Below are positions 36,474 to 40,310 of a stretch of DNA of 64,000 bases, piece after piece. Position 1 is the stretch's first letter; each line of letters begins with the position of its first letter. The position numbers were made by a program, and so were the translations under genes. The notes beneath the pieces are model-generated. The model was given only the letters and a program-made list of their open reading frames with translations, did no database searches and was not told where the DNA came from. Source of the stretch: Promethearchaeota archaeon (GTDB taxonomy: Archaea; Asgardarchaeota; Lokiarchaeia; Sigyniarchaeales; SOKP01); assembly GCA_019058445.1 (NCBI GenBank), contig JAHPZA010000006.1:1196943-1260942 (forward strand), in the 5' to 3' direction.

Positions 36474-36980
36474 TTATATTTGTATTCTTTGCTTTACTTT
36501 TTTTTCTTTTTTCTCCTTTGAGGCAAAAATAATTTCGTCTAGTTTATAGATCCTATCACAGTATACACACTGAATCTTCAAAGGTTTCTCTTCTAGAACA
36601 AGAAATTCACTAGAAATCGGCTCTTTTTGTGAATTGACGATACATGTGGTATTCTGGCATAAAATTAATTTTTTAATTAATTTTGGAAGTTTTACCTTAA
36701 TCTTTTCAATTACTTTATAGTCATCAATTAAAGAGATGGTAGCATTTGGAGAGAGGATTGAAATCTGTTGCATCTGTATTTCATTCAAAAACACTCCCTC
36801 TATTTTGATAATGTCTTTTTTATTATATTTTTTTGAGGGAACATTTACACCAATTGTCATTAAATTTGGGGACTCATCAAGGTTCGTTAGATTTAGAATA
36901 GTTAATGCATAACCTGCATCGATATGATCAATAACAGTACCTTTATGAATTCTTTCGATTTTTAATTTATCTTCAGACAT
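36474..36980 (-). CDS. pyrI: aspartate carbamoyltransferase regulatory subunit
   Basis: GTVIDHI, NVPSKK..KKDIIKIE, C.N..C, C.YCD. Confidence 0.95.
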   Translation of the reverse strand: MSEDKLKIERIHKGTVIDHIDAGYALTILNLTNLDESPNLMTIGVNVPSKKYNKKDIIKIEGVFLNEIQMQQISILSPNATISLIDDYKVIEKIKVKLPKLIKKLILCQNTTCIVNSQKEPISSEFLVLEEKPLKIQCVYCDRIYKLDEIIFASKEKKEKKVKQRIQI

Positions 36981-37012: not shown

Positions 37013-38089
37013 TTATTCAATAAGAATTGTAATAAAAAATAATACTGTTGATAGTATAAAAATATATGTTAAATTATCATCAATTTCTAAATCTAAATAA
37101 TCTAATATACCAATAATGGCAGAGCCGATTAATGGTAACACTAAAAAGCCTAAGGGACTTATTTCATAAAATTCACTTAAAATAATCAGTATTATAATTC
37201 CTGATAAAAATGCGATAATCATTCCAGCAAATAATCCTATATAGGTCTTGTTTGTAGATCTAATATACTTATATTTATCTCCAACAGTTCTTCCTATCAA
37301 ATTTGAAGCGATATCTCCAAATATTGCCATTGTCATTGAGGTGCAAATAACAAAAGGTCCAATAGGCTGGAATAAGCCGTATAAAATTATTATCGAAAAA
37401 CAACCAACAGCCATAGATATTTGGGGCCCCAATCTCATGTGCAATTCTTTTTCACGCAAAATTTGATTAACAGGTTTTAAAGGATAAATCTCAGGTTTTA
37501 AAATTCTTACGAAATCAGCAGTGAGAAGTCCGATTAATGAAATACTTACTAAAAATACTACCAGATATTGGGTAAAAATCATAGGATTTTTTTCTATTGT
37601 ATAAATCGAAAAAAATAGATCTGAGAAAAACTCGGGAAAAAAATTTAAGAGGTATACGAAAAAGTTTTTAACTAAAAATCCTAAAGTAAAATAGAACAGA
37701 ATAATGGCCAACACAACCAAATGGGTCAATTTTCTATAAAAATCATATTTTAATGGTAATATTTTTAGAGGAGAGGGTTCATAATCTTTTCTATTTCTCA
37801 TTTTTCTTTTTTCATGTACAATTAAGAGATAAAAAATGGGCAGAAATACTATAATAAAACCTAACAATAAGATATCAAAGGGAAATACAATAAAACTGAT
37901 TGTAAATGGGAAAAAAAAACTAACTATTAAAAAATTTAGAGTAATTGATAAAATAAAGACTATTGAAATGGTAATATTATTGAAAAATGCTTTAATTTCA
38001 CCTTTTTTTCTTGCTATAAAGGAAATCTTCAACATAATTAAACCATATAAGTATAAGATACTCAGAATCAAAAAAGAGATTAAATTCAC
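37013..38089 (-). CDS. CTP-dependent polyprenol/diacylglycerol kinase family (SEC59/DGK1/VTE5) membrane protein
   Basis: RKLTHL, LREKE, GDIASNLIG, KTYIG, IDDNL. Confidence 0.75.
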   Translation of the reverse strand: MNLISFLILSILYLYGLIMLKISFIARKKGEIKAFFNNITISIVFILSITLNFLIVSFFFPFTISFIVFPFDILLLGFIIVFLPIFYLLIVHEKRKMRNRKDYEPSPLKILPLKYDFYRKLTHLVVLAIILFYFTLGFLVKNFFVYLLNFFPEFFSDLFFSIYTIEKNPMIFTQYLVVFLVSISLIGLLTADFVRILKPEIYPLKPVNQILREKELHMRLGPQISMAVGCFSIIILYGLFQPIGPFVICTSMTMAIFGDIASNLIGRTVGDKYKYIRSTNKTYIGLFAGMIIAFLSGIIILIILSEFYEISPLGFLVLPLIGSAIIGILDYLDLEIDDNLTYIFILSTVLFFITILIE

Positions 38090-38197: not shown

Positions 38198-39598
38198 TTA
38201 AAATTGAGATTCATCTATATTTGGCATTTCGGGAGAGGCTAAAGCTTTCTCGATATCCTCAGCCGGTAGTTCATAGTCTTCTAAATCTCCAGTCATATAT
38301 TCTTTATAAGCTAATAGATCAAAATAACCATGTCCACTGAAATTAAACAATATTACTTTCTTCTCATTGTTTTCTTTAGCTTTTAAAGCTTGATCAATCG
38401 TTTCTTTAACTGCATGAGCGGTCTCAGGGGCAGGAATTATTCCCTCACATTTAGCAAATCTAATTCCTGATGCTATCACTTCAGTTTGATGGTGCATTGT
38501 TGCTGACATTACCTTATTATTGGTTAAAATTGAAACAATGGGAGCAATCCCATGATATCTTAATCCACCTGCATGTATTGGGCTAGGAATGAAAGTGTGA
38601 CCTAAAGTATGCATTTTTGCAATGGGACCTTTCATTGATGTATCCCCAAAATCCCATCGATACTGTCCTTTACAAACACTAGGACATGCTCTTGGTTCTA
38701 CACCAATTATTTCCAAGTCTGGGAGAATTCCATGTAATTTATCTCTAGCAAAAGGAAGCATTAAACCTGCAAAGTTAGAACCGCCTCCCATGCAACCAAT
38801 TACAATATCAGGTTTAACTCCTACTTTATTGAGTTGAATTTTTGCCTCTTGTCCTACAATTGTTTGATGTAATAAAACAAAATTTACGACACTTCCAAGA
38901 GAATATCTTATTTTATCACTTCTCATGCTATGCTCAACAGCTTCTGAGATAGCAATTCCTAAACTACCAGGGTGCTCAGGATCTTTTTCGAAAAACATTT
39001 TTCCAGATTCTGTAAACCTAGAGGGACTTGCGTGAACTTCAGCATCGTAAGCTCGCATCAAAATCTTTCTACCTGGTTTTTGAATAAAACTTGCTCTGAC
39101 CATGTAGACAGTACAATTTAGTCCAAATAAATTACATCCAAAAGAAAGTCCTGAACCCCATTGTCCAGCTCCTGTTTCTGTTACTAATTCTTCAAGTCCA
39201 TCCCTCTTTGCATAATATGCTTGAGCTAAGGCAGTATTAGGTTTATGAGAGCCCGTTGGAGAATAGGATTCATTTTTATAATAGATCTGTATATTATCTC
39301 CTTCAATTCCTAGCTCTTTCTCTAAACCTAATGCACGATGGAGTGGACTTGGTCTATATGTTTTTGCATAAATTTCCCTCAATTCATTAGGAATGGGTAT
39401 TAGAGGCTCTTGAGATACTTCCTGCAAGACGCATTCTTTTGGAAATATTGCAAATGCCAGTTCTGGTGGTGCTGGTTTCCCATCCATTGGATTAACTAAG
39501 GGCGTCATAGGGGATGGTAAATCTGGTAATATATTTATCCATTCCTTTGGTACCTCATTGGGTTGTAATAATATCCTAGAATTAAAATAATCCACCAT
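38198..39598 (-). CDS. trpB2: tryptophan synthase beta chain, TrpB2 type
   Basis: SPTGSHKPNTA (PLP Lys), TETGAGQWG, GSLGIAISEA, GGGSNFAG, HAGGLRYHG, PAPETAH. Confidence 0.95.
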   Translation of the reverse strand: MVDYFNSRILLQPNEVPKEWINILPDLPSPMTPLVNPMDGKPAPPELAFAIFPKECVLQEVSQEPLIPIPNELREIYAKTYRPSPLHRALGLEKELGIEGDNIQIYYKNESYSPTGSHKPNTALAQAYYAKRDGLEELVTETGAGQWGSGLSFGCNLFGLNCTVYMVRASFIQKPGRKILMRAYDAEVHASPSRFTESGKMFFEKDPEHPGSLGIAISEAVEHSMRSDKIRYSLGSVVNFVLLHQTIVGQEAKIQLNKVGVKPDIVIGCMGGGSNFAGLMLPFARDKLHGILPDLEIIGVEPRACPSVCKGQYRWDFGDTSMKGPIAKMHTLGHTFIPSPIHAGGLRYHGIAPIVSILTNNKVMSATMHHQTEVIASGIRFAKCEGIIPAPETAHAVKETIDQALKAKENNEKKVILFNFSGHGYFDLLAYKEYMTGDLEDYELPAEDIEKALASPEMPNIDESQF

Positions 39599-39721
39599 TT
39601 TAATTACCTTATCTTATTTTTTTAGCACATTTTTAATGTGTTTCATCTTAATTTTGGAAATCAAAATCAGTAATGCACTATTAATATTTTTAGTAAAATT
39701 GTATAATCGAGAATTACTTTT

Positions 39722-39786
39722 AAAAGAAGAAAGATTTCATGGTTTAATCCAATGCAAAGGCGTTATCGCCAACGCCAAGGCCACTG
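39722..39786 (-). terminator. putative attenuator: hairpin over the leader stop codon plus U-tract
   Basis: GGCGTT-GGCGAT-AACGCC hairpin (39776-39759), extendable to 39786-39750, followed by TCTTTCTTCTTTT (39734-39722). Confidence 0.5.
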
Positions 39787-39819
39787 CCAACGCCAAGCCC
39801 AATTATTTACAGTTGCCAT
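39763..39819 (-). CDS. Trp-rich leader peptide (uORF) MATVNNWAWRWQWPWRWR
   Basis: ATG 39819 to TAA 39763; six TGG codons in alternating positions; 164 nt upstream of trpB2 on the same strand. Confidence 0.8.
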   Translation of the reverse strand: MATVNNWAWRWQWPWRWR

Positions 39820-39844
39820 TATAGCTAAACCATATCATAGAAAA

Positions 39845-39852
39845 TTATTAAG
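39845..39852 (-). promoter_or_regulatory. TATA-like box for a leaderless leader-peptide/trpB2 transcript
   Basis: CTTAATAA ending 25 nt before the uORF ATG, the archaeal leaderless geometry. Confidence 0.45.
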
Positions 39853-39905
39853 ATGATTTATTTATCAAGGTTTAAAAAGTTAATTAATTTCTATCTCAAA
39901 ACTAA

Positions 39906-40310
39906 TTATCGACCCTCAAAAATCTTATATAAATTTTTCGCCGCGATTCTCATTACTTTCACAGTTTTCATTAAAGTGTCAATCATCGTGCCAGCACATA
40001 CAATAACTAACCTCCCTGCATTTGAAATAACAATATACCCATCCTGTGCTCGCACTATAATTTCACTTAAATCTTCTTGAAACAAACTCTGAATTGTTGA
40101 CCGCCCTGTCATCAATAATGCAGATGCGAGCCCACAAAATTGATCACCATCAACATGATATTGTGGTAAAGCACTAAACGCTATTTGATACCCCTCTTGT
40201 GAAACTAACGCTATCGCTTCAATATCAGCATTAGATGTGATAAACGTAATTTGTGGGCTGATCTTCTCAATATCAGACTGATCTATTCCCAAGTCACTTC
40301 CGAACTGGAT
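39906..40310 (-). CDS. Roadblock/LC7 domain protein; possible ATC start
   Basis: IEAIALVSQEG..I, L.EIIVRAQDGYIVI; AGGTGG-N6-ATC at 40310 in frame with TTG 40292. Confidence 0.85.
   Translation of the reverse strand: MQFGSDLGIDQSDIEKISPQITFITSNADIEAIALVSQEGYQIAFSALPQYHVDGDQFCGLASALLMTGRSTIQSLFQEDLSEIIVRAQDGYIVISNAGRLVIVCAGTMIDTLMKTVKVMRIAAKNLYKIFEGR

Follow-up and report, generated by a model that had tools for sequence, protein, structure and literature searches.

A tryptophan-codon leader upstream of trpB2 in a Promethearchaeota genome as a candidate ribosome-mediated attenuator

In a 64,000-nucleotide stretch of a Promethearchaeota archaeon genome (Lokiarchaeia, Sigyniarchaeales; contig JAHPZA010000006.1 of assembly GCA_019058445.1), hereafter the window, a short upstream open reading frame (uORF) with six Trp codons precedes the tryptophan synthase-like gene trpB2 on the minus strand. 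We propose that this uORF belongs to a ribosome-mediated Trp attenuator at the 5' end of the trpB2 mRNA, a reading to which we give a probability of roughly 60%. Its core, a translated Trp-codon leader acting in cis on trpB2, had been put forward in an earlier note made from the sequence alone (the original prediction), and is supported here by the conservation of the leader, its attachment to trpD as a second Trp transcription unit, the constraint on its frame and stop codon, covariation of the helices around it and the U-rich tract that follows it. All of these are directly observed features of the DNA, as are the ORF itself and a promoter-like site in front of it.

The leader ORF occupies 39819-39763 of the minus strand and comprises 18 codons plus TAA (ATG at 39819-39817, TAA at 39765-39763), encoding the peptide MATVNNWAWRWQWPWRWR. 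Its six in-frame TGG codons lie at 39801-39769, each alternating with another codon; ORF, peptide and codons were all found where they had been predicted. In a genome of 31% G+C (25-35% in the window) such a composition is rare. The whole 4.6-Mb assembly has 55,720 ATG-initiated ORFs of 8-60 codons; six Trp occur in only four of them, and none of the other three is as short as 20 codons. It also represents the top single-residue enrichment, for any amino acid, among the 6,068 intergenic small ORFs, that is, those outside the large ORFs of the genome (binomial P 1.8e-9). The earlier argument that six TGG in 18 codons are hard to obtain by chance is therefore borne out by the genome-wide ORF statistics, and chance is excluded as the origin of the Trp richness. 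The same intergenic scan found no leaders for other amino acids in this genome; a His-rich small ORF on contig 1 was considered as a his leader and rejected, there being no his genes downstream of it.

The leader is widely conserved at this position. For 125 genomes of this order (Promethearchaeia/Lokiarchaeia metagenome-assembled genomes) we gathered the region preceding trpB2, and a uORF with the W-x-W pattern was present in 101 of these 125 regions. Nine further loci that at first seemed empty carry degenerate leaders with two Trp codons, together with the same promoter and hairpin, so that the Trp-rich uORFs which the original prediction proposed to look for upstream of orthologous trpB2 genes do exist. 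A typical peptide in the relatives is MATVxxxxWQWPWRWQ, and the number of Trp residues in the homologous leaders ranges from 2 to 6. Outside the W-x-W core the peptide is poorly conserved, its N-terminal codons varying while the length of the ORF is kept, and in the window's family the uORF lies 186-267 nt from the trpB2 ATG. More distant families of the order have longer leader peptides ending in WPWH or WAW. The leader is genuinely absent from about a dozen trpB2 loci. In two species of the window's own genus only a 3' remnant is left (TAACGCC...CATTGGATTA and the T-rich tract), which points to deletion of the uORF.

The element is also found in front of a second Trp transcription unit. A pattern search for TGGCAKTGGNNNTGG over 154 genomes returned further copies away from trpB2, and nine of those fetched have the layout of the trpB2 leader, namely the promoter motif, a uORF (e.g. 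MAPENNSFWRWQWPWRWQ), a hairpin over the stop codon, a CATTGG block, a T-rich tract, a second conserved block (block 2, below) and a small hairpin. They precede a trpD-trpC-trpF-trpB operon, identified by its TrpD (PF00591 and PF02885), TrpC (PF00218), TrpF (PF00697) and PALP TrpB domains. TrpD is present, in this operon, in 34 of the 154 genomes of the order (about a fifth), and a Trp-rich uORF lies upstream in 23 of the 30 trpD loci examined. One 6.04-Mb single-contig genome carries paralogous leaders before trpB2 and trpD, both ending in ...SLSLDNKAWPWH, and related leaders occur in two single-contig genomes (4.4 and 6.04 Mb). In several genomes whose trpB2 has lost its leader (genera g4, g6 and part of g1) the trpD operon has one. 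In every case trpB2 or trpD comes directly after the leader and in the same orientation, whatever gene lies on its other side; by this comparison the element tracks Trp genes and not a neighbourhood. Several other Asgard families, beyond the order, also have trpB2 genes preceded by a Trp-rich uORF with a hairpin that spans its stop codon; 1.4-Mb genomes are among them. Compact leaders in other Asgard families keep the uORF, the stop-codon hairpin and the U-tract and lack the hairpins P4 and P5 described below. Three of them (L262, L263 and L275) have a Trp-rich frame of 46-59 codons, with an MGFALT start in two different families, which hints at a longer or two-part leader ORF in those lineages.

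The reading frame is constrained. In 97 distinct loci with at least three TGG at a 6-nt period, an ATG-initiated ORF enters the TGG block in the Trp frame in 89, as compared with 3 and 10 for the other two frames, and an in-frame stop codon follows within 1-3 codons of the last TGG in 91 of the 97. All three stop codons are used (TAA 55, TAG 31, TGA 11). The first Trp is mostly found 8 codons after the ATG, with variable residues between the two. This pattern is what would be expected of a translated frame, and we take it as a proxy for translation; it would be hard to obtain from an RNA structure or a protein-binding repeat alone.

The Trp codons are themselves part of the RNA structure. Hairpin P1 (GGCGUUG-GCGA-UAACGCC, 39776-39759, minus strand) has Trp5-Arg-Trp6 as its 5' arm, and the stop codon spans its loop and 3' arm. 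It was detected by folding and by compensatory variants in relatives, including GGUCUU:AAGACC, GUGC:GCAC and GCGCG:CGCGC as well as GCAUUGGC:GCCAAUUGC versus GCAGUGGC:GCCACUUGC. P1 is more stable on the sense than on the antisense strand in 59 loci as compared with 16 for the reverse, and the region around the stop has a mean folding energy of -10.65 versus -7.17 for shuffled sequences. A second hairpin, P0 (39817-39779, minus strand), is a family-level structure recognized by covariation in our alignment A2, where the G of the AUG and codons 2-4 (39817-39810) pair with CAGUGGCC (39786-39779) in the Gln, Trp and Pro codons. In A2, 78% of the P0 cells are paired and 4 of its 7 pairs have changed on both sides. 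This pairing accounts for the conservation of MATV and WQWP at the nucleotide level. In the window P0 is possible, yet it lies outside the minimum free energy (MFE) fold, where GGCA:UUGC and GGGCU:GGCCU form in its place. Taken together, P0, P1 and P4 have 75% of cells paired and 25 of 33 pairs changed on both sides, a covariation above all 500 shuffles and all slid controls. Covarying stems, which had been suggested as a check on the leader, are thereby found in the relatives as P0 and P1, built largely from the Trp codons.

The two hairpins are enclosed by a long-range closing helix, Pc, assigned from the MFE fold and from a cognate-pairing test. Its 5' strand, UAUGGUUUAGCUA (39834-39822, minus strand), lies in the uORF's 5' untranslated region (5'UTR), where it occupies the usual Shine-Dalgarno (SD) position, and its 3' strand, UGGAUUAAACCAUG (39751-39738, minus strand), lies within the conserved block GCAnnGGAnUAAACCA. 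The MFE fold of the window forms Pc with P1 enclosed. In relatives the 5' strand is again in the 5'UTR (median -18 to -4 from the AUG, e.g. AUGGUUUA) and pairs with a conserved GGAnUAAACCA block after P1. Cognate duplexes average -7.5 kcal/mol versus -5.4 kcal/mol when partners are swapped between loci (cognate better in 66/90, p 2e-8), and compensations are seen (UUGGUUUA:UAAACCAA versus AUGGUUUA:UAAACCAU, and also AAUAGUCC:GGACUAUU). A mini-ORF, AUG-GUU-UAG, within the Pc 5' strand was rejected as a coding element, its first base covarying with its partner (AUGG:CCAU to UUGG:CCAA), so that pairing explains it. The original prediction had placed an extended proximal hairpin (39786-39750) next to the U-tract; this does not hold, the helix beside the tract being Pc. 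It had also described AACGCC (39764-39759) as pairing with either of two GGCGTT copies (39776-39771 or 39794-39789). The three segments are present, but the alternative distal pairing is not conserved and most relatives have a single copy.

Three nucleotides past Pc begins a U/C-rich tract, TCTTTCTTCTTTT (RNA UCUUUCUUCUUUU; 39734-39722, minus strand), confirmed at the position where it had been noted and a candidate archaeal termination signal. Of 91 loci, 86 have a tract with at least six U in seven no more than 90 nt from the stop, and in 44 of the 55 loci with a good Pc the gap between Pc and a U-rich window is no more than 12 nt. The 15 nt after Pc contain a mean of 8.5 U versus 5.2 expected. 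In a distant family (f2) a 13-bp hairpin with 7 compensated pairs starts at or contains the leader stop and is followed 5-7 nt on by a U-tract, the two together lying 250-300 nt from trpB2.

Several other structures were considered and rejected. A classical scheme of 1:2, 2:3 and 3:4 pairings did not emerge, the downstream pairing energies being equal to those of shuffled controls. Pairing of the post-P1 segment GCAUUGGA with UCCAAU of block 2 showed no covariation by eye in A2, and P3, an AU-rich hairpin seen past the tract in one genus, is matched or surpassed by the fold of its antisense strand. RNAalifold on a first 14-sequence alignment gave only weak structure because the P1 registers differ, and invariant columns swamped a naive all-against-all column scan. 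A cmscan search of 39300-40000 with E values up to 10 found no Trp_leader (RF00513), T-box or other relevant Rfam family.

Transcription of the leader would start from a promoter-like site combining a TFB recognition element (BRE) and a TATA-like box, TAATTAACTTTTTA (39886-39873, minus strand), about 53 nt before the leader ATG. It scores 15.0 bits with a position weight matrix (PWM) trained on the leader promoters of other genera, the window's genus being excluded. In most loci 44-56 nt separate the end of the promoter consensus, CATTAAATTTTTAA, from the leader ATG, and PWM matches are enriched at -100 to -40 of genes genome-wide. Within the 307-nt spacer that holds the leader, TAATTAACTTTTTA is the only site of at least 4 bits, with none between the uORF and trpB2. 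The predicted transcription start is near 39850-39845, which would give a 5'UTR of about 27-32 nt containing the Pc 5' strand. The original prediction had instead read the TATA-like CTTAATAA as the source of a leaderless transcript; this motif does end 25 nt before the ATG, but it scores below 4 bits and the better motif lies about 53 nt upstream, so that the leaderless start is not upheld. Similarly, the TATA-like AATATTAATA (39690-39681), raised as a possible promoter of trpB2 itself, scores below 4 bits, and a separate trpB2 promoter is not visible with this matrix. A second PWM match, GCGAAAAATTTATA (11.5 bits, 39928-39941, minus strand), falls within the 3' end of the preceding gene, some 110 nt upstream of the uORF; that gene (39906-40292, minus strand) encodes a product with a Roadblock/LC7 domain.

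Between the U-tract and trpB2 lie two more conserved elements. Block 2, or hairpin P4, GUGCAUUA...UUGAUUUCCAA...AGAUGAAACAC with UUGAUUUCCAA as the loop (39678-39638, minus strand), consists of near-invariant columns and also covaries, with 85-86% of cells paired and both sides changed in 10 of 12 pairs. Its outer stem varies as CAUUA:UAAUG, CGUUA:UAACG and CUUUA:UAAAG, and its inner stem as AUAUUG:CAAUAU, GUGUUG:CACAAC (CAACAC in the 3' arm) and AUUUUG:CAAAAU. P5 (CACAUU-AAA-AAUGUG, 39640-39626) is just 5' of an A-rich tract and the SD, and its stem sequence drifts while pairing is retained; it is given here on the minus strand, although sense and antisense are equally stable and its strand is unassignable. 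Both hairpins are also present in the leaders of the trpD operon and in relatives that have lost the uORF, and they may form an additional regulatory module or an RNA site for protein binding.

We propose the following model. Transcription would start about 27-32 nt before the leader ORF, and the leader RNA would fold as a junction in which Pc joins the 5'UTR to sequence some 12-25 nt after the stop codon. Inside Pc would be P0 and P1, with Trp codons as their inner strands, and the U/C-rich tract would follow 3 nt on. A pioneer ribosome would load while the RNA is being synthesized. Sensing of Trp would be limited to ribosomes that load during transcription, the uORF's ribosome-binding region being covered by Pc. 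When Trp-tRNA is ample, the ribosome would traverse the six UGG codons and be released at the UAA in P1, allowing the junction to fold, and RNA polymerase (RNAP) would then stop at the U-rich tract, intrinsically or with aCPSF1/FttA, to yield a short leader RNA. When Trp-tRNA is scarce, the ribosome would stall on a UGG in the middle of the junction and block P0 and P1, and hence Pc, since this short AU-rich helix would have no supporting junction without them; RNAP would then read through into trpB2. What we infer from the sequence in this scheme is that the leader is translated, that ribosomes stall on it, that transcription terminates at the tract and that this termination depends on the fold. 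Termination in archaea is driven by U-tracts and aCPSF1 (PMC8716108), and FttA may compete with a coupled ribosome (PMC11616081). Equally allowed are factor-dependent termination, in which the fold or the ribosome gates access of the factor, and a post-transcriptional output.

A number of observations weigh against the attenuator. Intrinsic termination in archaea is not known to need a hairpin, so that a fold-dependent stop is an assumption of the model. No antiterminator was found when the post-stop segment was compared with all downstream RNA (-7.5 versus -7.65 for shuffled sequences, with unclustered partner positions), which means that the leader is not a copy of the four-segment switch of E. 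coli. Pc reaches -6 kcal/mol or lower in just 55 of 90 loci, and the single-sequence fold of the window's leader is unexceptional (z -0.98). Moreover, P4 and P5 outlast the loss of the uORF, which makes another layer of control or a second promoter possible. One could in principle read the T/A-rich tract as a second TATA box, though as a promoter neither the U-rich tract nor block 2 matches the PWM better than shuffled sequence, a result that falls short of proof with a matrix trained on leader promoters. Finally, the relatives are not independent of one another and the P-values are consequently overstated.

The most serious competitor, which we consider rather unlikely, accepts that a translated uORF senses Trp-tRNA but makes the output post-transcriptional, the leader, folded or unfolded, together with P4/P5 and the A-rich/SD region setting translation initiation or mRNA stability of trpB2. 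Its counterparts would be erm/cat translation attenuation or the Cys uORFs of mycobacteria, and no premature termination would be involved. In its favour are P4 and P5, conserved and covarying hairpins placed between tract and SD, the frequent pairing, in MFE folds, of the U-rich tract with the A-rich/SD region that precedes trpB2, a weak excess of predicted contacts between the post-stop segment and SD columns, and the fact that hairpin-dependent termination is unproven in archaea. However, pairing between a U-tract and an A-tract, read here from MFE folds, arises in any AT-rich RNA. Furthermore, the compact leaders of other Asgard families have kept the uORF, P1 and the U-tract while having no P4/P5, and the hairpin and U-tract of the f2 family sit 250-300 nt from trpB2.

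Two further explanations dispense with a sensing ribosome. If the (UGG-NNN)n repeat and its stems were a structured RNA or protein site acting without translation (a target of a TRAP-like multimer that binds spaced triplets, a riboswitch or a tRNA-binding element), with the ORF incidental, one could account for the strict 6-nt period, the nucleotide-level conservation (e.g. UGGCAGUGGCCU) that extends to the third position of the X codons, and the pairing of most Trp codons in P0/P1. We regard this as improbable given that the ATG-initiated ORF is frame-specific (89/97 versus 3 and 10), that a stop is kept 1-3 codons past the last UGG with all three stop codons interchanged, and that N-terminal codons vary while ORF length is kept. 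Nor does the genome have a TRAP homologue, a profile search of it for MtrB (PF02081) giving no match while the B. subtilis control was positive, and no Rfam family including the T-box matched. The remaining view, in which a small independent gene happens to lie beside trp genes and its Trp-rich peptide serves a separate function, seems to us more improbable still. The unit does come with a conserved promoter-like motif of its own, a U-rich tract follows it, and certain bacterial trp leader peptides act in trans (PMC7298713). Against this, the peptide is poorly conserved outside the W-x-W core with a Trp count of anywhere between 2 and 6, its codons are constrained by RNA pairing, and it is always found co-oriented and directly upstream of trpB2 or trpD despite a differing upstream neighbour.

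The gene that follows the leader (38198-39598, minus strand, ATG at 39598, 466 aa) is preceded by an SD-like AGGTAAT (39609-39603, minus strand). Its product scores 638 bits with NF009057 (cut-off 366) and 589 bits with TIGR01415 (cut-off 519), but only 140 bits with the TrpB1 model TIGR00263, below the cut-off of 392. From these profile matches it is TrpB2, a stand-alone TrpB-like pyridoxal phosphate enzyme, and the NF009057 score bears out the identity first given to it. Searches of the genome, which is 92.6% complete, found no TrpA, no chorismate-binding TrpE, no TrpD and no TrpB1 above cut-off. Indole salvage is the role proposed for stand-alone TrpB2 enzymes. That trpB2 is the only Trp-making gene found in this 92.6%-complete genome suggests indole salvage, or that the organism relies on an outside supply of indole or Trp.

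In bacteria, leader-peptide attenuation is a textbook form of regulation and needs coupled transcription and translation. Like trpL, hisL, pheL, thrL, leuL and ilvL (RF00513 being Trp_leader), the element described here has a short ORF that is rich in codons of the regulated amino acid and runs in the same direction as the biosynthesis genes directly after it; its regulatory codons are part of a stem, it is followed by a structure and a U-rich tract, and the logic would be the same, charged tRNA being sensed by the speed of the ribosome. It differs in its archaeal host, with a TBP/TFB promoter and archaeal RNAP and termination factors, and in the lack of a match to RF00513. It differs also in that no conserved 2:3 antiterminator was found, in that the helix at the U-tract is long-range and encloses the whole uORF rather than being a local 3:4 hairpin, in its (W-x)n alternation in place of tandem WW, and in that the regulated gene is a stand-alone trpB2. 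To our knowledge, a closing helix around a whole uORF with no antiterminator is a design that has not been seen in bacteria. The nearest parallels in logic may be the single-structure, ribosome-occlusion attenuators, namely E. coli pyrBI, where the signal is reportedly nucleotide-dependent RNAP pausing and not tRNA charging, and the mycobacterial poly-Cys elements (bioRxiv 10.1101/834739), which are reportedly leaderless, each a difference from the leader here. In both, a ribosome on the leader reportedly blocks one inhibitory structure without any antiterminator. Ribosome position could likewise gate a termination factor, as in the tna operon (TnaC/Rho) and in the proposed control of coupling by FttA/aCPSF1 (PMC11616081, PMC8716108). 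TnaC, however, senses free Trp and induces a catabolic operon, whereas the genes here are biosynthetic and the peptide is poorly conserved outside its W-x-W core, so that the leader does not appear to be a TnaC-type arrest peptide. The Bacillus TRAP leader has 9-11 (G/U)AG triplets with 2-3 nt spacers, unlike the UGG triplets here with their strict 3-nt spacers in frame.

The described control of trp genes in archaea is by DNA-binding proteins at promoters, TrpY in Methanothermobacter and Tar/TK0271 in Thermococcus (PMC6737238). The element here would share with TrpY and Tar the control of archaeal Trp biosynthesis and differs in being an ORF-containing RNA leader; direct reading of the 307-nt spacer found no TGTACA TRP box. 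In the literature searched we found no leader-peptide attenuator from archaea, and a 2021 review of archaeal coupling does not contain the word attenuation. We would put at even odds the wider claim that Asgard archaea (Promethearchaeota) use true ribosome-mediated transcription attenuation, in which a pioneer ribosome on junction-embedded Trp codons decides whether RNAP stops at a U-tract. If true, Archaea would have their first amino-acid-sensing leader-peptide attenuator, and the closest prokaryotic relatives of eukaryotes would offer direct functional evidence that transcription-translation coupling is used for regulation. The occurrence of a Trp-codon leader on two different Trp transcription units across Asgard lineages makes attenuation in archaea directly testable, and the leader offers a handle on the regulation of archaeal termination (U-tract, aCPSF1/FttA). 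It would also mark organisms with trpB2 only as actively regulating what is probably indole salvage.

Other features of the window were noted in passing. Near trpB2 lies pyrI (36474-36980), recognized by its PyrI domains, and the 358-aa ORF between the two (37013-38089, minus strand) has no Pfam or NCBIfam match at an E value of 0.001 or better. The six-frame scan also returned a second Trp-rich ORF of 18 codons, MWIWSKWFWRFRGYFWTK, with 5 W at about 58740 on the plus strand; its absence from the intergenic set means that it shares DNA with a large ORF, and an out-of-frame artefact is the probable explanation.

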